In this document: in pieces, positions 3,918 to 49,984 of the stretch
Layout of the letters: every line of letters starts with the position of its first letter
Numbering within the stretch: position 1 is the first letter of the stretch
From: an uncultured Candidatus Saccharibacteria bacterium
GTDB lineage: Bacteria > Patescibacteriota > Minisyncoccia > Phycocordibacterales > UBA6899
Assembly: GCA_964469335.1 (NCBI GenBank)
Contig: CAYXYK010000003.1
Span: 132,674-196,673, forward strand
Direction: 5' to 3'
Length of the DNA stretch: 64,000 bases
The notes under the pieces: model-generated
Told to the model about the DNA's origin: nothing
The model's database searches: none
Seen by the model: only the letters and a program-made list of their open reading frames with translations
Position numbers and translations under genes: made by a program

Positions 3918-4334
3918 ATGAATGTCGAAGTAACTAAGGTTCCGCTCGTCGACTCGCTCGCATCCGGGAATGATTTCCTCGAAGCGGAGCATACCCTCGC
4001 GATGATACCGATACCGTCGAAGATGCTGAAGCACGGCGAGAAGTATTTCCTCGTGCGCGCCGAAGACCACTCGCTCAACCTTGCCGAAGTCGGTGGCACC
4101 AAAGTGAAGATCTTCACCTATGCGCTCGTGCGTCGTACCCGCACCGCAGAGCATGGAGACATAGTAGTGGCATGCCATAAAGGTGCGCTTACGATACGTG
4201 TGTACGAGAACGCGCACGGCATCGAGATCCTCCGTCCACGCTCGAGTGATGAAACGTTCGTCACCACCGTCCTCACCGAGCTGTGCGATGTGAAGGGTGT
4301 GGTCGTTGCCATTCTCCCTTCAAACCTCTATTAA
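3918..4334 (+). CDS. hypothetical protein
   Basis: 138-aa ORF. A -10-like TGTAGGAT box (3904-3911) lies 6 nt before the ATG, suggesting a leaderless mRNA. Confidence 0.5.
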   Translation: MNVEVTKVPLVDSLASGNDFLEAEHTLAMIPIPSKMLKHGEKYFLVRAEDHSLNLAEVGGTKVKIFTYALVRRTRTAEHGDIVVACHKGALTIRVYENAHGIEILRPRSSDETFVTTVLTELCDVKGVVVAILPSNLY

Positions 4335-4512
4335 GGACCTTTGTGCATGGCGAACTCCTTTGTTATAAGACGAAACACTTATGCCTCTGCCTCCTTACAG
4401 GAGCTGTACACCTTTTGGATTTCTCAGAAGAAATCTCATAAGGTCTTGAGGAATGGGTCCCAGCCCATTCCCTCACTCCGTGCCTCGGATTTCACTCATT
4501 TACAAAGGTCCT
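4333..4512. repeat. MITE-like element with 11-bp terminal inverted repeats AGGACCTTTGT ... ACAAAGGTCCT
   Basis: Inverted repeats at 4334-4344 and 4502-4512 flank 155 bp that contain two internal hairpins (GATTTCT/AGAAATC and GAATGGG/CCCATTC). Lies between a stop codon and the next promoter. Confidence 0.4.
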
Positions 4513-7354: not shown

Positions 7355-7588
7355 TCAGCGGTGGATCTTGGCAGGCACGAGCTTCTTGGCGCGGCTGCGT
7401 GCGCGGCAGATCATCTCGGTCGAGAGCGAGAGCGCGCCGGGCAGGATCGCGAGCGACAGGAATGGCGCAGCGGCGGCCGAGTTCGCCGTGACGAAGTAGT
7501 AGCCGGCGATGAGGCCGAGCACAGCGAAGCAGGCGAAGAAGATGACCGAGATGCGATTGAAGCCGTAGATCGTCGGGTAGTGGTCCAT
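7355..7588 (-). CDS. small membrane protein (2 predicted TM helices)
   Basis: 77-aa hydrophobic ORF directly upstream of 7057..7335. Confidence 0.4.
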   Translation of the reverse strand: MDHYPTIYGFNRISVIFFACFAVLGLIAGYYFVTANSAAAAPFLSLAILPGALSLSTEMICRARSRAKKLVPAKIHR

Positions 7589-7726
7589 GGAGTCTCCTTG
7601 GAAAGAGCATTCATTGGCGACATGCCGATGAGTCAGCTCGGTTGATGACGTATGAATAATAACACTTTATTATCCATACGTCAATTGTCTCACTTCGCTC
7701 ATGTCCCAACCTTATATATAAAAGAA

Positions 7727-29584: not shown

Positions 29585-31855
29585 ATGAGGTTGAAACGGT
29601 TGGAAATCTTTGGATTCAAATCCTTCGGCAAGAAGGCTGTTCTCGAGTTCTCCTCACAGATCACCTCGGTCGTCGGTCCGAATGGTTCCGGCAAATCCAA
29701 TGTCGCAGAAGGTATCCGTTTCGTACTCGGTGAACAGTCGATGAAATCGATGCGCGGTAAACGCGGAGAGGACCTCATCTTCAACGGCTCACAGTCGACC
29801 GGCCGCGCCAACCGTGCGAGTGTTGCGATCGTGTTCGACAACTCGAAGCGCGAATTTCCACTCGACTTCGACGAAGTCTCCGTCTCGCGTGAAGTCTATC
29901 GCGACGGCTCCAATCAGTATTTCATCAACGGCTCACAGGTCCGCCTCAAGGACGTGTTCGAGCTCCTCGCTTCAGTCCACATCGGCGCCTCGGGCCATCA
30001 CATGATCTCACAAGGTGAAGCAGACCGTATCTTGAATGCAAACCCGAAGGAGCGCCGCGAGATGCTCGAAGACGCGCTCGGTCTCAAGGTCTACCAATAC
30101 AAGCGCGCCGAGAGTGAACGCCGACTCGAGAAGACCGAAGAGAACCTGAAGGAGGCAGAGGCACTTCGCCGCGAGATCGCTCCGCACCTGCGCTTCCTCA
30201 AGAAGCAGGTAGAGAAGGTCAACGAAGGCAAAGCCCTGCGCGAGCGCCTGATCGGACTCTATCGTGAATATCTGAAGCGTGAAGAGATCTATATCACCCG
30301 AAAGAAAGAAGAGATCGCCGGGAAGCGTGCGGATCCCGCAGCTGAACTCGCCGACCTCATGATCAAAATAGCGCATGCGCGCGAACTCCTCGCAGGCGAG
30401 AATGCCGGCGACGAAAAGAGCCAGCGCCTCCTCGCGGTGGACGCCAAACTGCGCGAAGTGCGCCAGCGCCACGACGAACATTCCCGCACCGCAGGCCGTA
30501 TCGACGGTATGATCGAGTTCGAGGAGAAGCAGCTCAAGAAAAAGCAGGAAGCCCTCGAACACAAAGAAGATATTCCCATTCGCCTCGGCGACGTCGAAGG
30601 GCTCGAGAGTACAATCGCACAGGAAATAGCCATCGCTGAGAATTCCGACGACCTCCATGTCATCCGCGGTGTGTTCGGTCGTGTTCGCGCAGCGGTTCGC
30701 GACTTCATCAATCATCACAAGGTACAGGCAGGCGAAAAGACCCTCACCCAAGAAGACTATCGCGAGCTCGAGGAGCTAAAGGCGGAGCGTGCCCGCGCAG
30801 AGGATTCGCTCCGTGCGGTTTCCGAGGAGTCGGCACAAATGGAACGCGAGTATCAGGCAGTGAAGGCAGAGATCGACGCCGAGAAGCAGCACTCACGCGA
30901 GACCGAGCGTGCACTCTTCGAGATGATGAACCGCCGCGGTGAGCTGCAGTCTGTGCTCGACCGGATCAAGAACGAAGAGGACAACATTCTGCGCGAAGGG
31001 CGCCGCCTCGAAGAAGAACTCGGCGAAGCCGGCATCCTGCTTGGCCGTGCGGTGCTCGACTATTCCAATATTGAGCTTTCGATCGAAGAGGTCATGGGTG
31101 AACCGCGTGATTCCCAGGAGCAGCGTCGCCGTGAGATCGAACGCGGCAAGATCCGTCTCGAGGACATCGGTGCCCAGGGTGGGGAAGATGTCGAGAAGGA
31201 ATTCGCCGAGACGACCGAACGCGACAAATACCTCGAGAATGAGATCGCCGATCTGGTGAAGACCCAAGAGTCCCTCTACTCACTCATCGCCGAACTCAAT
31301 GAGAAGCTCAACAACGAATTCCGCGACGGCGTGAAGAAGATCAACAAGCAGTTCAGCGACTTCTTTACCTTGATGTTCGGTGGCGGTGTCGCAGAGCTGT
31401 TCGTGGTGAAGATCGAGAAACGCGGCAAGAAGAAGGACACCGAACTCGATCTCTCTGATCTTCCGGGAGAAGCAGTGGACGGAGAAGAGGAAGAGGACGA
31501 AGAGGGTATCGACATTGCCGTCTCACTTCCGCACAAGAAGACCAAGGGGCTCGTCATGCTCTCCGGCGGTGAGCGCGCACTCACATCAATTGCACTTCTC
31601 TTTGCAATCTCTCAGGTTAACCCGCCGCCGTTCATGGTGCTCGATGAGACCGATGCTGCCCTCGACGAAGCAAACTCACGCAAGTATGGCGACATGATCG
31701 AGAATCTCGCCAAACTCTCGCAGCTGATGGTGATTACCCACAACCGCGAGACCATGTCACGCGCTGGCACTATTTATGGGATCACGATGGGGGCGGATGC
31801 GGTGTCGAAGGTGCTTTCGATCTCCTTTGACGACGCCTCAGCTGTCGCGAAGTAA
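29585..31855 (+). CDS. smc: SMC-like chromosome segregation ATPase, short (about 756 aa) and lacking a recognisable hinge
   Basis: N-terminus MRLKRLEIFGFKSFGK..GPNGSGKSN. C-terminal signature LSGGERALTSIALLFAI and D-loop MVLDETDAALDE. TACAAT box lies 9 nt before ATG 29585, with an in-frame GTG at 29576. Confidence 0.7.
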   Translation: MRLKRLEIFGFKSFGKKAVLEFSSQITSVVGPNGSGKSNVAEGIRFVLGEQSMKSMRGKRGEDLIFNGSQSTGRANRASVAIVFDNSKREFPLDFDEVSVSREVYRDGSNQYFINGSQVRLKDVFELLASVHIGASGHHMISQGEADRILNANPKERREMLEDALGLKVYQYKRAESERRLEKTEENLKEAEALRREIAPHLRFLKKQVEKVNEGKALRERLIGLYREYLKREEIYITRKKEEIAGKRADPAAELADLMIKIAHARELLAGENAGDEKSQRLLAVDAKLREVRQRHDEHSRTAGRIDGMIEFEEKQLKKKQEALEHKEDIPIRLGDVEGLESTIAQEIAIAENSDDLHVIRGVFGRVRAAVRDFINHHKVQAGEKTLTQEDYRELEELKAERARAEDSLRAVSEESAQMEREYQAVKAEIDAEKQHSRETERALFEMMNRRGELQSVLDRIKNEEDNILREGRRLEEELGEAGILLGRAVLDYSNIELSIEEVMGEPRDSQEQRRREIERGKIRLEDIGAQGGEDVEKEFAETTERDKYLENEIADLVKTQESLYSLIAELNEKLNNEFRDGVKKINKQFSDFFTLMFGGGVAELFVVKIEKRGKKKDTELDLSDLPGEAVDGEEEEDEEGIDIAVSLPHKKTKGLVMLSGGERALTSIALLFAISQVNPPPFMVLDETDAALDEANSRKYGDMIENLAKLSQLMVITHNRETMSRAGTIYGITMGADAVSKVLSISFDDASAVAK

Positions 31856-31960
31856 TTTTGGCGCCCTCCTCGTCCTTCCTTCGGCGAACTTCGTCACCGT
31901 ACACCGCGTACGGCTCCGAAGTATCACCTCAGTCCAGGACTTCGGATTGCATCCAAAATT
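31854..31960 (+). repeat. MITE-like intergenic element, family copy R5
   Basis: Terminal inverted repeats AATTTTGG/CCAAAATT. Central hairpin CCGTAC-accgc-GTACGG (31897-31913) covaries with the R2 hairpin. Confidence 0.5.
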
Positions 31961-32441
31961 CCTTCGCTCCAGGGGACGGGGGATAAGTGTGGTGGAGAGA
32001 GCACAGAAGCGGAACGTCCTCTGAAAGAAACTCATGGAGCAAAATCTCATACTTTGACAATCCGTGGACGGTGGAGTAGTTTTCTCTTCGGAGAGGTAAC
32101 AGACGGATAGTGGCATTTGCCCCAAGAAGTGAAGGTGACTCTTGGTCCAGAGATCGCTGACTCCTGCGGGGGAAGGCGTGAGGCAAGGAGGTTCGACCCC
32201 TCCCCGTTGCGAACGTACTAGGATGTACTGTGTAGGATAGGTCTGAGGCTTTGAAGTGGTGTCGCCAGGCATCATGGAGCCACCGTTGAAATAAGACCCT
32301 GTATGTCTGAAGAGCGAAAGTTCTGAGCATTGCAATCCGACGTCGATGGCACTCTCGACAACACCCAGCACCGTTAGGTGTGCGGTAGTGATGCGTTGAC
32401 CGAATGATCGCGTACATAGTAGCCCTCTCCACCCCATACCA
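31961..32441 (+). other. unassigned noncoding region (candidate structured RNA or decayed element) ending at a + strand terminator
   Basis: No credible ORF on either strand. Contains a UUCG-loop hairpin (tTCTCttcgGAGAg) and a tRNA-like T-arm. A + strand terminator lies at 32442-32467. Confidence 0.25.
32166..32214 (+). other. fragment resembling a tRNA 3' end (T-arm GGAGG-TTCGACC-CCTCC + acceptor strand CCGTTGC + G) with a possible 7-nt partner GCGGGGG
   Basis: Canonical T-loop TTCGACC. Position 70 of the acceptor strand is U. No D or anticodon arm could be folded upstream. Confidence 0.3.
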
Positions 32442-32467
32442 CCGCCGTGCTCAGCACGGCGGTTTTT
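32442..32467 (+). terminator. intrinsic terminator
   Basis: Hairpin CCGCCGTGC-tca-GCACGGCGG followed by T5. Confidence 0.55.
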
Positions 32468-32481
32468 CATTTTTCGGTATA

Positions 32482-32509
32482 GAAAAAAGCGGCCGAGGGT
32501 TCGGCCGCT
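32482..32509 (-). terminator. intrinsic terminator for 32533..32727
   Basis: Hairpin AGCGGCCGA-gggt-TCGGCCGCT with T6 on the minus strand. Confidence 0.5.
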
Positions 32510-32532
32510 TTGCGTGCGGGGGGGCTGGGTGC

Positions 32533-32727
32533 TCAGCGCCGCCGGTGCGGATGTCCGTAGTACGGCCCGTAGTAGTACGGGTAGTAGCACGAATAGCAGT
32601 AGAGCGGCAGGTAGATCACCGGGGCGTCCACCGCCACTTGTCGCGGATCGTGCACCGGGACCGGCGTGAAGGCGCAGCCGCCGAGGGCGAGGAAGACGAG
32701 GAGCGAAGCGATGGATCGGACGAGCAT
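32533..32727 (-). CDS. small putative lipoprotein with Tyr-rich C-terminus
   Basis: Signal peptide with lipobox-like LGGC. Tail YCYSCYYPYYYGPYYG. Confidence 0.45.
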   Translation of the reverse strand: MLVRSIASLLVFLALGGCAFTPVPVHDPRQVAVDAPVIYLPLYCYSCYYPYYYGPYYGHPHRRR

Positions 32728-32819
32728 GGCAGTCTCCGGAAGTTGAACAGCTACAATAATTGTACATATTTATATCATTTTGTCAAAGTCTACCTAGAGC
32801 ACGACCAAACGGCGGTAAA

Positions 32820-32848
32820 TTGACTTAGCATGCTAACTTTGCTATATT
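32820..32848 (+). promoter_or_regulatory. promoter TTGACT-N17-TATATT
   Basis: Near-consensus boxes upstream of 32898. Confidence 0.35.
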
Positions 32849-32897
32849 GCACAGGCACGTATTTGTGTACGCATCGAACAATCCAAAGGAGTCTCAC

Positions 32898-33104
32898 TTG
32901 AGTGCCATTCACGAACTACTCGTCCTTGGTCGAGCGCGGGGGATCATCGGCATCACTGCCGGTATGTCCTCAGAAGTCGAACCCACACCGGAGCCCGTCT
33001 CGGGTACTGGTCATGTCCGACGAGAACCGCAACAACAACAGCAGGGTACCCGTTACTCCGCCGAGCACATCCGCCAGCAGCAGGCGCAGCAGCAAGGCCA
33101 GTAG
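32898..33104 (+). CDS. small protein with Gln-rich C-terminus
   Basis: TTG start 6 nt after AAGGAG. 68 aa. Followed by a terminator. Confidence 0.4.
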   Translation: MSAIHELLVLGRARGIIGITAGMSSEVEPTPEPVSGTGHVRREPQQQQQGTRYSAEHIRQQQAQQQGQ

Positions 33105-33136
33105 TCTTCTATTCGTGCGCATCACGTGCACCCACG

Positions 33137-33164
33137 CTCCCGGAACTCCCGGGGCGTTTTTTTT
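33137..33164 (+). terminator. intrinsic terminator
   Basis: Hairpin CCCGG-aactc-CCGGG followed by T8. Confidence 0.45.
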
Positions 33165-33240
33165 GCGCCTTTGACTAAATCATTTTTCATATGTAGTTTA
33201 CAGGACGGAGTATCAGTCGTTTCCACAACAAGGAGTGTTC

Positions 33241-33567
33241 ATGCAGAAATACCGTTACCGCGTCGACGAGAACGAAGGCAAGCTTCCCGAGGGCAATGTC
33301 CCTGTGGTCCAGGCATCAGACCCGATCACCGTCGGCGTTCGTTCCGTCTACACCCTTCGCGTCTTGCATGTCTTCATGCGCGATCCGTTCGGCGTCGCTC
33401 GGCGTGGCTTCATTCCGAGCATCAAGGCGAACTGCCTTCCGGAAGAACGCGGCGAAGTCCATTTCGGCGAAGATGGCGTCGCCTATGGCATGGCGGTGGG
33501 CAGCGGCCTCCTCATGATCGACAAGAAGTCGCAGGAAGTCAGTGGCCTCGCTGTGGTCGCCAACTAG
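33241..33567 (+). CDS. hypothetical protein
   Basis: AGGAG lies 5 nt before ATG 33241. 108 aa. Confidence 0.5.
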   Translation: MQKYRYRVDENEGKLPEGNVPVVQASDPITVGVRSVYTLRVLHVFMRDPFGVARRGFIPSIKANCLPEERGEVHFGEDGVAYGMAVGSGLLMIDKKSQEVSGLAVVAN

Positions 33568-33585
33568 TTTCCGGTACTCGTAGAA

Positions 33586-33610
33586 AGGCCTGCCTCGCGC
33601 AGGCCTTTTC
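33586..33610 (+). terminator. intrinsic terminator
   Basis: Hairpin AGGCCTGC-ctcgc-GCAGGCCT followed by TTTT. Confidence 0.55.
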
Positions 33611-33701
33611 CTTTGTACCTGCGCGAAGAACTTGAGCAAAAATAGAACGATGCTATCATGAAAATAGCTGCTCATCCCACTAACCCCGAAGGAGGAATGC
33701 C

Positions 33702-33860
33702 ATGCGTTTGAACCCGCGACACAGTGGAGAAAGACTCTCGCGATCGGCCCTCAATCAAGAACTGCGCGCTCAGCTGTCCGAACTGCGCGCACTCCTCCTC
33801 TACTTCGGTTCCGCCGAGATCGTGGTGCTTCACTACTACGACTTCGTGCGGTATGCATGA
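33702..33860 (+). CDS. unlisted 52-aa small ORF
   Basis: GAAGGAGG lies 6 nt before the ATG. Promoter TTGAGC-N16-TATCAT upstream. Hairpin GGAGCC/GGCTCC downstream. Product MRLNPRHSGERLS... Confidence 0.3.
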   Translation: MRLNPRHSGERLSRSALNQELRAQLSELRALLLYFGSAEIVVLHYYDFVRYA

Positions 33861-33882
33861 CCCCACACCCACCAGCACAAGC

Positions 33883-33913
33883 GGAGCCCCATGGCTCCGC
33901 TTCGCTCGTTTTC
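33883..33913 (+). terminator. putative terminator for the small ORF
   Basis: Hairpin GGAGCC-ccat-GGCTCC followed by a T-rich tract. Confidence 0.35.
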
Positions 33914-33918
33914 TGTAA

Positions 33919-33950
33919 TAAAAAAGCAGGGCCCGGGGGCCCGCTTCAGT
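33919..33950 (-). terminator. intrinsic terminator for 33960..34256
   Basis: GC-rich hairpin (GCGGGCCC/GGGCCC..GC) with T6 on the minus strand. Confidence 0.4.
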
Positions 33951-33959
33951 ACGGTGTGT

Positions 33960-34256
33960 TCAGCCTTGTTGCTGCTGCACACGGTTCGGTTGGAGTGAGG
34001 TCGCTTCGACGACGAGCGGAGTCCGTCTCCGGAACTGGATCAGGATTTCGCGGTACGCTGCGGGCGTGGGAGTGCCTTCCGGGGTTGCGAGTTGTGCTTC
34101 GCAGGACTGCTGATCGTAGTGGACCAGCCGCACCGTTCCCGAGAGATGTGCGACGCTCGCATCGACCCGATCGACGACCTGTGCTGCGGTCGTTTCATTT
34201 GTTCCGGGTGCGAATGCGACCCGGATCGGCAGCGAAGGATCTTCAGCTTGGTACAT
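33960..34256 (-). CDS. hypothetical small protein
   Basis: 98-aa ORF. Confidence 0.45.
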   Translation of the reverse strand: MYQAEDPSLPIRVAFAPGTNETTAAQVVDRVDASVAHLSGTVRLVHYDQQSCEAQLATPEGTPTPAAYREILIQFRRRTPLVVEATSLQPNRVQQQQG

Positions 34257-34407
34257 GGCGAACTCCTTTCAGTAGTGAACGCCTGTTATCGTTATATTCC
34301 TATTGGGAAAAACGTCAATGAGCTTTCAATGAAAAAGGTGCATATCGCTCCTCTTCTTTGTCGAGAAAGGAGTACAATGGGGAGATAATAACTAATCTCA
34401 ACGATCT

Positions 34408-34677
34408 ATGACCGTAGTCATGAAAGAGCAGGGATGTGTGGCATCGACCATCGGCTATTACTTGGTCATCATCGGTGCGATCAATTGGGGCCTCGTCGGG
34501 CTCAGTGATTTCACAATGATGAATCTCAATGTCGTGAACCTTCTCGTCGGGGGAATGCCGACGCTCGAGTCACTCGTCTATATTGCCGTCGGAGTCGCCG
34601 GAGTGATGACACTCATCGGGTGCAGATGCTCTACCTGCAAGGCCTGCCGCGTCGAAGGGGGAAACCCACAAAAATAG
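34408..34677 (+). CDS. DUF378-family small membrane protein
   Basis: Motif IIGAINWGLVGL and a 2-TM layout typical of the YuiB/DUF378 family. Confidence 0.55.
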   Translation: MTVVMKEQGCVASTIGYYLVIIGAINWGLVGLSDFTMMNLNVVNLLVGGMPTLESLVYIAVGVAGVMTLIGCRCSTCKACRVEGGNPQK

Positions 34678-34679
34678 CG

Positions 34680-34790
34680 AGCTTCTTCGTTGCGGGTCCC
34701 AACCTACTCAGTCAACATAGGAAGACTACGTCTTCTTCGCAGGTATTCCCGCGTCTCGAATCTCATCAATTTTTGCGAGTTTCAAGATAA
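34680..34790 (+). repeat. intergenic element, family copy R6
   Basis: Hairpin ACATAG-gaaga-CTACGT (34715-34731, one mismatch) enclosed by GCGGG/CCCGC. Flanks resemble R1 and R8. Confidence 0.45.
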
Positions 34791-34806
34791 GTAATTGTTT
34801 GCAAAC

Positions 34807-48685: not shown

Positions 48686-49984
48686 ATGTCCGAGGAACTC
48701 CGTCACGAAAATGTCGAAGAGACTCCGGTCGAAGCGGAAGTTGTCGACCCGTACCTTGCGTTCCGCGATGAGCGAATGAGGTCATGGCGTGAGGGTGATG
48801 CGCCTATCGTCGAACGAGCGGAATTCGAGCGCCAGTCGTATCAGAACAGCCTCGAGAATATGCAGCACTTCAGTGAGCAATTCGAAAAGCGCGCAGAGTC
48901 ATTACGAGGTGATATTGATGAGAAAAAATCCGGTCTGCTCTCACGCATCCTCCATTTCAGGCAGATCCGTGACCTCGAGTCCGAGCTTGGTATCACCGAG
49001 CACCAGGCACGTCGCTCGCGAGAGATGGCAGATGAACGTGCACAGCTCATCGCTCAGTATGACCGTATCATCGCCGAAGAGAACGAACTCGGTGCGCTGA
49101 TGGAAGAGGCGCAAAAGGAGAATGAAGCCTGGGACGAGGAGAAACGCCATGACTACCTTGAGAGTGAACGGAGACGTGATCTCACACAGCTCTCTCGCGA
49201 ACACAAGACATTTTTCGTGCATGACATCGTGACTGCGGCATGGAAACCATCCGAGAACAACGAGGCAGTGAATACCAAACAAATGGACTGGGGTGATCAG
49301 TTCGACGTCTTGCTCGGACTGGAGCCGACGATTGCCGCATCGACACTCGATCATGCACATGGAGGGGAACAACGGACCTTTGGTCAACAGAGTTGGGGTG
49401 TGTTTCTTTCGGGGGGACGTGTGCTCGGCGGCAATGTTGTCGATGCGGGCACACGCGCATACGGTCTCTATGATCGCGTGGTGCCGAAAGGGAAGGATGA
49501 CCCCGATGCGATCGAGCACGCGATCACCGGCCGCGGAGAAGGACACAATGAACTTATCATCGAGAAGCCAGAGATCGCCGGAGTGTATGCGAAATGGTTC
49601 CCAGATATCCCGCTTCTCCCGGAAATGTCACTCCAGAACACCAAGTCGGTTGGCTATGACGGATGGTGGAAGAACATGCGAAAGGTGATGGATCGCAATG
49701 TCCCTGTTTTTGTACTTACACAGGACGGCAGGACCAAGATGCTTTACGACATCGACCCCGAATCCCGCACCTTCAAGGTCACTGATGCGGAGTTCGAGCC
49801 CGAGCACCTGAGCGACCTCCCTGGCATCTATAAACAGCATCTTGGGGAAGAGGAGCGAAAGAAAGCGGTCATGCGTGTGTTCGACAAGGTCTCGGGTGCG
49901 CTCACCGAGGACCAGAGGGAACAGTTCGCTCCGGACAGCAGCGAGCATACTCCTGACGATTCGCCATACCGACTCCATCAGTGA
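48686..49984 (+). CDS. hypothetical acidic protein
   Basis: 432 aa. Starts 2 nt after the trmD stop. Confidence 0.5.
   Translation: MSEELRHENVEETPVEAEVVDPYLAFRDERMRSWREGDAPIVERAEFERQSYQNSLENMQHFSEQFEKRAESLRGDIDEKKSGLLSRILHFRQIRDLESELGITEHQARRSREMADERAQLIAQYDRIIAEENELGALMEEAQKENEAWDEEKRHDYLESERRRDLTQLSREHKTFFVHDIVTAAWKPSENNEAVNTKQMDWGDQFDVLLGLEPTIAASTLDHAHGGEQRTFGQQSWGVFLSGGRVLGGNVVDAGTRAYGLYDRVVPKGKDDPDAIEHAITGRGEGHNELIIEKPEIAGVYAKWFPDIPLLPEMSLQNTKSVGYDGWWKNMRKVMDRNVPVFVLTQDGRTKMLYDIDPESRTFKVTDAEFEPEHLSDLPGIYKQHLGEEERKKAVMRVFDKVSGALTEDQREQFAPDSSEHTPDDSPYRLHQ

Follow-up and report, generated by a model that had tools for sequence, protein, structure and literature searches.

What, if anything, is encoded immediately downstream of the gene for an SMC-like ATPase in a patescibacterial contig, where a short sequence resembles the 3' end of a tRNA and no protein is evident? 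The window analysed here, that is, the whole 64,000-nucleotide (nt) stretch from positions 132,674 to 196,673 of contig CAYXYK010000003.1, had been given a sequence-only reading, in which the interval 31961-32467 was left as an unassigned noncoding transcript containing a tRNA-like fragment. Part of an unrecognised structured RNA, the remains of a tRNA at an att site or at the edge of a genomic island, and a degraded transfer-messenger RNA (tmRNA) or other gene were offered as explanations. The first of these has been borne out. Positions ~32090-32468 (+ strand) are predicted to be an independent gene for a structured noncoding RNA (ncRNA) of ~380 nt, and comparison with its relatives makes it very probable that the RNA belongs to a genuine, selected family with a closing stem, a tRNA-like module and a replica of the L1 stalk of 23S rRNA. 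The match to the L1 stalk is the strongest signal in the region and had been missed; that the region specifies no plausible protein holds, since none of its open reading frames (ORFs) has a Pfam match. More tentatively, the stalk-like head may dock on a tRNA-type elbow.

A replica of the ribosomal L1 stalk

A scan of the whole window with Rfam at gathering thresholds gave a single match inside the interval. Positions 32221-32308 (+) match positions 2127-2214 of the LSU_rRNA_bacteria model with 61.3 bits and an E-value of 1.1e-15, which corresponds to the L1 stalk of 23S rRNA, helices 76-78 (H76-H78). Identity to the Salmonella and Escherichia coli 23S rRNAs is ~81-82% over 82 nt (blastn). The domain comprises an H76-like helix (32221-32230 with 32299-32308), a first T-loop strand UGUAGGAUA (32231-32239), an H77-like helix (32240-32244 with 32294-32298), an H78-like helix with its base at 32247-32249 and 32279-32281 and its hairpin at 32256-32275, and a second T-loop strand GUUGAAAUA (32285-32293). 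Thus, the domain shares with the ribosomal stalk the three-way architecture, both T-loop strands (GUAGGAUAGG and UUGAAAUACC), the pairs of H77 and of the H78 base, ~81% identity and an Rfam score above the gathering threshold. It differs in H77, which reads GGUCU/AGACC in the lineage of the window rather than GGUGG/CCACC, in the variable tip of H78, and in its setting, since here the domain stands by itself in an RNA of 215-460 nt that has its own promoter and terminator and no other segment of 23S rRNA.

This setting does not fit a 23S gene or a piece of a fragmented rRNA, as model positions 2127-2214 alone match and the members carry their own promoter and terminator. When the complete Salmonella 23S rRNA was used as an nhmmer query against 17 loci, the confident alignment was to the L1-like segment alone. 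A longer alignment reaching the central loop of domain V in two family members, L113 and L098 (GAAAGACC.CGUG; L-numbers are our handles for loci), was set aside as a chance match, given its low posterior probability and the deletion of the underlying segment in the sister sequence L116. An E-value-based Rfam scan of 31800-32560 omitted the 61-bit match given by the gathering scan of the window but did list the equivalent match in another member, L112; the discrepancy is taken as filter or truncation behaviour of the tool.

Members of the family and covariation

The family now comprises 20 distinct members of ~215 to 460 nt: the window, L082, L006, L047 and 16 metagenome sequences. Among 80 genome loci around SMC homologues, taken from one genome per species, and 10 further loci from exact-protein look-ups, the RNA occurs in only four lineages. 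L086-L090 have the same SMC protein as the window and carry a homologue, as does L082, whose SMC is 94% identical. In L006, with an SMC 79% identical, the RNA is ~61% identical over its 3' 280 nt. The most distant of these loci, L047 (Parcubacteria GW2011_GWA1_40_21), has an SMC only 52% identical and was found through a weak nhmmer match; its 370-nt gap holds a promoter (TTGACA-17-ATACTT), a T-arm (GGCGG-UUCGAUU-CCGUC), the L1-stalk-like strands GCGUAGGAUAGGUGGGAGAAAAUGAAG ... CCUUGAAAUACCACCCUC and a terminator.

Features common to the window and L047 supplied a search pattern for metagenomes: a T-loop, 20-50 nt, TAGGATAGG, 35-65 nt and TTGAAA. This pattern gave 32 metagenome loci. Of these, 16 proved to be distinct new members when scored, at 44-96 bits, with a covariance model derived from four sequences; the other loci were rejected as ordinary tRNA genes with chance matches downstream. 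Strict patterns taken from the window, L006 and L082 copies had no match in the viral or metagenome collections, and a scan of the viral collection with the successful pattern also gave none. Matches of blastn to phage records were to contaminating or real 23S sequences only.

The case for a selected structure is carried by covariation in the 20 sequences, aligned by fitting them to the covariance model, a procedure that in itself favours structure. Pairing in the T-arm and the three L1-like helices extends to 87.5% of cells; shuffling leaves 63.2%, and not one of 500 shuffles attains the observed value; the covariation score is 0.63, against 0.20 for shuffled alignments. Both sides change in 28 of the 31 pairs, distributed as 4/5 in the T-arm, 10/10 in H76, 4/5 in H77, 2/3 in the base of H78 and 8/8 in its hairpin. 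For the T-arm alone the paired fraction is 92%. If the 3' partners are shifted by 1-3 columns, pairing falls to 39-46%, and this control, with the number of pair types seen, argues that the signal is real despite the model-fitted alignment.

The tRNA-like module

The segment that first drew attention, GGAGG-TTCGACC-CCTCC-CCGTTGC-G, lies at 32187-32211 as had been read, and this 25-mer is unique in the 64-kb window and beyond chance expectation. It consists of a T-arm, GGAGG-UUCGACC-CCUCC (32187-32203), followed by the 3' strand CCGUUGC (32204-32210). With a 5-bp stem, a UUCRA T-loop and covariation across the 20 sequences, the T-arm is canonical.

Upstream of it, no D-arm, anticodon arm or 5' acceptor strand had seemed foldable. 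This was too pessimistic. At relaxed thresholds (-ps80/-ps85), ARAGORN draws an 83-nt cloverleaf at 32129-32211 (+) and calls it 'tRNA-Ala(tgc)'. Its acceptor-like helix is GUGAAGG/CCGUUGC with a G3.U70 pair and one A.G mismatch, and a discriminator-like G stands at 32211; there is a D-arm-like CUCU-UGGUCC-AGAG (32139-32152, +) and an irregular 'anticodon' arm with a loop reading UGC (32155-32178, +). The homologous stretch of L082 (4283-4361) is called a tRNA at the default setting. Cloverleaf-like folds ending just 3' of the T-arm are found in 12 of the 20 members at 85% of the ARAGORN threshold, with unrelated 'anticodons'. Nevertheless this is no tRNA gene, since ARAGORN at its default and the Rfam model RF00005 are both silent over 32090-32468. 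The GCGGGGG (32166-32172) earlier proposed as a minihelix partner of the acceptor 3' strand is deleted in L006 and L082.

A different partner for the nucleotides 3' of the T-arm recurs across the family. Member by member, the strand that follows a junction motif near the 5' end is able to pair with them: CAGC/GCUG in L106, L094 and L114, CAGC/GUUG in L124, CGAC/GUCG in L122, CGAC/GUUG in L123, CGGCUGU/ACAGCUG in L113, CAACG/CGUUG in L116, and GACGG(G)/(C)CCGUU in the window and L082. These pairings suggest that an internal acceptor-like helix is probably real across the family. The layout of acceptor stem, D-loop GG and T-arm is like that of the tRNA-like domain of tmRNA, where a D-stem is also absent. 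The junction of L082, GAUACUGGAUUC, may resemble the D-loop analogue of E. coli tmRNA, GAUUCUGGAUUC.

Between the T-arm and the L1-like domain runs a linker (32204-32222, +), CCGUUGCGAACGUACUAG, which is the most conserved part; its positions CC.GUUGCGAA.GU.CUAG are invariant in the window, L082 and L006 copies. The L1-like domain starts 18 nt 3' of the T-arm in the window and 10-35 nt downstream of it across the family. In L006 the T-loop (AUUCUAAU) and the first T-loop strand of the L1-like domain (GUAGUGCAGA) have both drifted from the consensus, and this joint drift, in one sequence, hints at a coupling of the T-loop and the L1-like head.

Extent of the gene and expression signals

A sigma-70-type promoter is recognisable at 32054-32082 (+), with a -35 box TTGACA (32054-32059), a 17-nt spacer and a -10 box TAGTTT (32077-32082). 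The match of L086 to the window spans 32053-32536 at 98%, the sequence of L086 upstream of it being unrelated, and homology begins at the promoter in all window-related copies compared. Transcription is therefore predicted to start near 32090 and not at 31961, the left boundary given before; 31961-32053 is a spacer without conservation. A similar arrangement, TTGAC(A/G/T)-N16-17-TA(A/G)NNT, is found at the matching distance 5' of the closing stem in 17 of the 20 members. A generic promoter scan did not call the 32054-32082 promoter, because its -10 box fits the consensus at only three of six positions.

The RNA is closed by a stem, P1, formed by GGAGAGG (32090-32096, +) and CCUCUCC (32424-32430, +), the latter lying inside GUAGCCCUCUCCACC (32419-32433); the start of the RNA would be at ~32089-32091. 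The sequence of this stem varies across members while its complementarity is kept, as in GAGAUGUGGAA/UUCCACGUCUC, GCGCAGAA/UUCUGCGC and GGAUUUGAAA/UUUCAAAUCC. When the duplex energy of each 5' end was computed against all twenty 3' ends, a member's own 3' end ranked first or second in 13 of 20 cases. A UUCG hairpin noted earlier in this area does not survive as a feature: it occupies 32083-32095, straddling the -10 box and the start, and GGAGAG, which forms its 3' half, belongs to the closing stem as the 5' strand. A closing stem proposed by minimum free energy (MFE) folding, 31988-32002 with 32422-32436, was likewise rejected, since L086 is unrelated upstream of 32053 and yet has an identical RNA.

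Next to P1 comes a 5' junction (32096-32115, +) made up of GUAACAG, then GACGG, which is the alternative 5' strand for the acceptor-like helix, and then AUAG-UGG with the D-loop-like GG. The pattern G-R-A-A-C-R, 3-5 nt and UGG recurs in most members. On the other side of the L1-like domain, a 3' domain (32309-32418, +) holds a GAAGAGCGAAAG strand, hairpins such as 32343-32358, a conserved CCCAGCACCGUUAGG (32364-32378) and a hairpin at 32390-32413; its blocks are kept among the window, L082 and L006 copies and vary in length and sequence in the wider family. The transcript ends at an intrinsic terminator (32441-32468, +) with a 10-bp stem, a 3-nt loop and a U-run. A terminator scan placed the stem at 32441-32463 with the U-run after it, in agreement with the + strand terminator read earlier. 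The terminator stem shows compensating changes in L082 and L006, and in the members read through the closing stem is followed by a hairpin and a U-run. Window and L086 agree at every position of the RNA proper (100%), but at only 89-91% of positions in the last ~470 nt of smc.

Comparison with known RNA families

Rfam 15 gave no family match at or near the gathering score, including to ROOL, GOLLD, OLE, raiA, HEARO, Y RNA and 6S; the gathering scans covered the window and 15 loci, the E-value scans covered the region and six metagenome members, and L047 was scanned too. The output across these scans consisted of the LSU fragment, T-arm matches or chance matches only. The one piece that fits any model is the 88-nt piece of 23S rRNA, and no full-length known model was returned by Rfam or ARAGORN. 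That the region is not a tRNA gene, and that tmRNA and RNase P RNA find no support, as the sequence-only reading had judged by eye, is thus confirmed at default and gathering thresholds; its further suggestion of a degraded tmRNA or other gene finds no backing in the same tools.

For tmRNA, ARAGORN found none in the window or the 20 members, and the sole Rfam match is a 17-nt one to the T-arm of L111, with 14.1 bits where the gathering score is 47. Unlike in tmRNA, the tRNA-like helix lies inside the RNA and the closing stem is not an acceptor, and the compact members, at 215-245 nt, are too short to hold a tag ORF and pseudoknots. A permuted tmRNA would have a 5' acceptor strand 3' of the T-arm, and none was seen there by eye. 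For RNase P RNA (P4, conserved regions CR-I to CR-V), Rfam gave no match even at E-values up to 10. A sequence in L122, gagaggaaagtccgggcacc, lies ~200 nt from the family member and is presumably the CR-I/P4 motif of an RNase P RNA, being recognised as such by eye and not confirmed by Rfam. There was no Rfam match to T-box riboswitches, and the neighbouring genes are unrelated to such a role and not conserved. The location is also not that of an operator for ribosomal protein uL1, since a terminator follows the RNA and tblastn over the window and the member loci (2-13 kb per locus) gave no gene for L1, L11 or L10, as an operon of the rplK/rplA type would have. Finally, an att site is not indicated: neither the T-arm segment nor the 3' end of the RNA recurs in the 64-kb window, and the neighbouring ORFs have no integrase domain. 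Searches of the literature on L1-stalk mimics, tRNA-like ncRNAs and structured RNAs of Patescibacteria and the candidate phyla radiation (CPR) did not turn up a comparable RNA. Judged by Rfam 15 and by the literature that could be searched, the family appears to be a new class of structured ncRNA.

With tRNA and tmRNA the family has in common the canonical T-arm, a short acceptor-like helix continuing the T-stem, the GG strand a few nt after the 5' strand and, in the window and L082 copies, G3.U70. It differs from them in that the helix is internal, with no free 3' end, CCA, conserved anticodon, tag frame or pseudoknots; the Rfam tRNA model is silent and the tmRNA model gives only its single sub-threshold match. 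Another stand-alone ncRNA, the bacterial Y RNA YrlA, has paired ends that close a tRNA-mimicking interior, including a T-arm, and has no rRNA-like domain. The paired 5' and 3' ends and the enclosed T-arm are points of likeness; the rRNA-like domain and the lack of an Rfam Y RNA match set the family apart. Neither rsr (Ro60) nor rtcB was found in a Pfam scan of eight window ORFs, a scan not aimed at either gene, nor among the metagenome flanks inspected by eye. The operators of uL1, in the leader of the L11 operon and in archaeal L1 mRNAs, are likewise non-ribosomal imitations of the uL1 site of 23S rRNA. They are short, partial mimics inside mRNAs for ribosomal proteins, whereas the family has a complete stalk in an independent, terminated transcript unlinked to rplKA.

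Proposed docking on a tRNA elbow

In the ribosome, the head of the L1 stalk stacks on the elbow of the E-site tRNA, the corner formed by the T-loop and D-loop, by means of interdigitated T-loops. The family RNA combines a stalk kept at the level of rRNA with a canonical T-arm that has a D-loop-like GG a few nt upstream, and for this reason its head most plausibly binds an elbow. We suggest that the L1-like head would dock on a tRNA-type elbow as the L1 stalk does. If it did so in cis, on its own tRNA-like elbow, the RNA would be a compact mimic of the state in which the L1 stalk is closed on a tRNA; if in trans, the partner would be a cellular tRNA, or another copy of the RNA, contacted at its elbow. 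In either version the RNA would act as a clamp or decoy for tRNA elbows, and not as a message or antisense regulator. The two versions are equally possible. By our own reasoning, the ~10-12 bp of the acceptor-like helix and T-stem, the ~10 bp of H76 and the short linker are dimensions that could allow the head to fold back on its own elbow. Taken by itself, docking is a tentative proposal, for which we would not offer even odds.

Other elbow receptors are known. In the distal platform of T-box Stem I and in the specificity domain of RNase P, interdigitated T-loops stack on the tRNA elbow (PMC4810234, PMC4919913). This stacking principle is the mechanism proposed here for the family. However, those receptors resemble the L1 stalk in three-dimensional structure only, whereas the family resembles it in sequence. 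Unlike a T-box, the RNA is not the leader of an aminoacyl-tRNA synthetase gene and lacks the specifier loop, the T-box sequence and the antiterminator; unlike RNase P, it has no P4 or CR-I to CR-V.

The whole explanation, that is, the family together with elbow docking, is given a probability of about 0.55. Several observations weigh against it. The window offers two mutually exclusive 5' strands for the acceptor-like helix, GACGG or GUGAAGG (32129-32135). A test of each member's acceptor duplex against those of the others did not discriminate, the strands being conserved (CAGC/GCUG), and the most compact member, L112, is without an obvious acceptor partner. The MFE z-score of the 31961-32467 interval, -0.74, is unremarkable. 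The search pattern required a canonical T-loop, TAGGATAGG and TTGAAA, so that the conservation of these motifs is partly built in, and diverged members such as L006 are under-sampled by it. Most syntenic loci of close relatives are without the gene, which would be odd for an essential housekeeping role; absence of this kind concerns the locus and need not hold for the whole genome.

Hosts and neighbouring genes

Around the RNA, the window encodes a phosphoketolase, an SMC-like ATPase of 759 aa whose gene ends at 31855, a DUF378 protein and, on the opposite strand, RNase R. The relatives of the SMC protein are all from Patescibacteria/Parcubacteria, the closest being labelled Candidatus Lloydbacteria or Paceibacterota, and the identified hosts of the RNA are all Parcubacteria/Paceibacteria, with the window and its near relatives Lloydbacteria-like. 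Two metagenome members, L098 and L118, adjoin a UvrC whose named relatives are Candidatus Giovannonibacteria, and L112 adjoins an MnmA whose named relatives are Paceibacterota/Parcubacteria. The hosts may fall within the Parcubacteria group OD1-L1. OD1-L1, a large group, is reported to be without ribosomal protein uL1 (PMC5220378, PMC9297842).

No gene neighbour is conserved among the member loci, and the metagenome members do not have SMC, RNase R or DUF378 nearby. The surroundings are of an ordinary housekeeping kind, with uvrC, dnaX, mnmA and a comF-like gene among the neighbours, as well as tRNA genes and what is probably an RNase P RNA; smpB is near the RNA in L096 only, 1 kb away. In Giovannonibacteria with a UvrC 62-70% identical, secG alone stands where L098 and L118 carry the RNA, and two look-ups of Giovannonibacteria uvrC loci gave no RNA at the locus. 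In those without the RNA, secG lies behind the same promoter-like sequence (TTGAC..CCCTTGCCCCATGCTAACCTTA).

The interval from smc to the RNase R gene is a recombination hot spot whose cargo differs from relative to relative (window 31856-34800; L002-L016, L082-L085, L092). A DUF2726 gene is found there in L006 and L082, a type ISP restriction-modification enzyme in L085, an IS200/IS605-type transposase in L006, small lipoproteins elsewhere, or nothing at all (L008). Identity of smc between the window and L086 starts at 99-100% and drops to 89-91% over the last ~470 nt with the protein almost unchanged, which marks a recombination breakpoint. In L086 the final 76 nt of the RNA gene (window 32396-32471) occur a second time, with 100% identity, at positions 7518-7593, ~500 bp downstream of the full gene. 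The duplicate holds the 3' strand of the closing stem and the terminator, and a minus-strand ORF for a 114-aa membrane protein lies between the copies, with no integrase there. Either an att-like repeat or a copy truncated at the 5' side could account for it.

Several other loci have features near the RNA. At L047 6448-7487 the RNA is immediately downstream of what by eye are a toxin-antitoxin-like pair and a GNAT acetyltransferase-like ORF, and in this one locus its promoter starts 9 nt past the third ORF's stop codon. Certain GNAT toxins are known to acetylate charged tRNAs, so the adjacency may carry meaning or be accidental. Proteins of ~200 aa beside the RNA in L096 (1879-2508, -) and L111 (530-1123, +) share WD..W..V.FDIPE...R..LR..L..LG and look PaaX-like or Cas2-like by eye, possibly by coincidence. 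In L098 (~4300-4500, -), and also in L118, a HicB-like antitoxin recognised by eye (MKYSVIIRKSKYGYDVHAPALPGCHSQGET...) follows the RNA.

Further off in the window, ~1.6 kb (32800-34400) past a small lipoprotein gene (32533-32727, -) contain only short overlapping ORFs, 33126-33635 being without a Pfam match; this stretch may hold degraded genes or more noncoding elements. The sole default ARAGORN call in the window is a tRNA-Arg(tcg) at 49374-49468, which at 95 nt is unusually long for a tRNA-Arg and may contain an intron or insertion, in keeping with introns reported in CPR RNA genes.

Alternative explanations

The RNA could instead be a precursor from which RNase P and RNase Z cut out the tRNA-like module, as in MALAT1/mascRNA or tRNA-punctuated transcripts. 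Processing would yield a small tRNA-like RNA and a separate L1-stalk RNA, and in the lineage of the window the small piece might be chargeable with alanine, given G3.U70. The cloverleaf-like folds do end one nt past the discriminator-like G in 12 of the 20 members, G3.U70 is present in the acceptor-like helix of the window and L082, and the gene often adjoins tRNA genes or a probable RNase P RNA (L094, L106, L122). However, CCA is not encoded, neither the anticodon arm nor G3.U70 is conserved across the family, and the acceptor-like helix, of 4-8 bp, is poorly defined in several members and has its 5' side tied into the junction motif and P1. Processing of this kind seems unlikely.

A decoy or regulator for uL1 is a little less probable again. 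Here the replica of the stalk would bind free uL1, much like the operators in L11-operon or L1 mRNAs, and so titrate or sense it, the tRNA-like part being structural. H77 and the base of H78 are the uL1-binding region of 23S rRNA. It is there that sequence is kept at the level of rRNA (GGGAG(A/G)C ... GGAG(U/C)C ... UUGAAAUACC), with the H78 base covarying as it does in rRNA, GAC/GUC alternating with GGC/GCC. An operator, however, needs a small part of the stalk, and this RNA has a complete stalk and a tRNA-like module. It is not upstream of rplK/rplA and has no conserved neighbour, and a uL1 decoy would make little sense in a group reported to be uL1-less, if the hosts belong to OD1-L1.

The gene may also be seen as a small mobile or mobilised cassette of promoter, RNA and terminator that moves between loci and lineages, for instance through reverse transcription or through recombination at the 3' end, its tRNA-like and rRNA-like parts serving propagation and not the physiology of the host. 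Clean presence or absence at two unrelated loci, 3' of smc in Lloydbacteria-like genomes and in the gap from uvrC to the following promoter in Giovannonibacteria, would fit such a cassette, as would homology that starts exactly at the -35 box and stops at the terminator and the L086 copy that is truncated at the 5' side with its 3' end intact. But the uvrC insertion has no target-site duplication, the loci do not regularly have a transposase, integrase or reverse transcriptase close by, there is one copy per locus and per 64-kb window, and the strong sequence divergence among members fits vertical descent and not recent spread. This makes mobility as the explanation of the RNA improbable.

That the sequence is non-functional chimeric debris, in which the 3' remnant of a tRNA at an att site or island boundary perhaps lies beside a stray rRNA fragment, was close to one of the origins first proposed for it. 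The hot spot between SMC and RNase R with its differing cargo (DUF2726 gene, type ISP restriction enzyme, IS200), the duplicated 76 nt ~500 bp downstream in L086 and the variable presence of the gene among close relatives are what debris would predict. Against this, every helix shows compensatory changes in the 20 sequences, and this covariation largely rules debris out as the primary explanation. In addition, promoter, closing stem and terminator are conserved, the T-arm is part of a family that distant Parcubacteria carry at unrelated loci, strains with different flanks share an identical RNA, and the window has neither an integrase nor a second copy. The reading is very improbable.

The idea of a tmRNA or RNase P RNA that has diverged strongly in these reduced genomes is suggested, for tmRNA, by the D-loop-like strand of L082, by the weak match to the L111 T-arm and by RNase R 2.4 kb off in the window and smpB in L096, and, for RNase P RNA, by a terminal closing stem and T-loop modules like those of the family. 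It is scarcely credible given the silence of ARAGORN and of Rfam beyond that one match, the position of the tRNA-like helix away from the termini and the shortness of the compact members.

Implications

If the head of the family RNA does dock on an elbow, as we propose, this would be a fourth natural use of an elbow receptor, after the ribosome, RNase P and T-boxes, and the first receptor evidently derived from rRNA. Short uL1 operators aside, we know of no free-standing RNA that copies an rRNA domain at the level of sequence, and to our knowledge no RNA couples a copy of an rRNA domain to a tRNA mimic. Finders of rRNA and tRNA genes would skip or misannotate such genes; the covariance model can be used to map the family across Patescibacteria.

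If the hosts are among the Parcubacteria reported to be uL1-less, the RNA might even take part in translation, as a trans-acting surrogate or adaptor in the handling of E-site tRNA, as a mimic, read by an E-site factor, of the L1 stalk when closed on deacylated tRNA, or as an RNA-only complex assembled head-to-tail through contacts of L1-like head and elbow, an idea that we regard as a long shot. The hosts are CPR bacteria with reduced ribosomes, in which the family may provide a handle on the traffic of E-site tRNA or on the replacement of uL1 functions.

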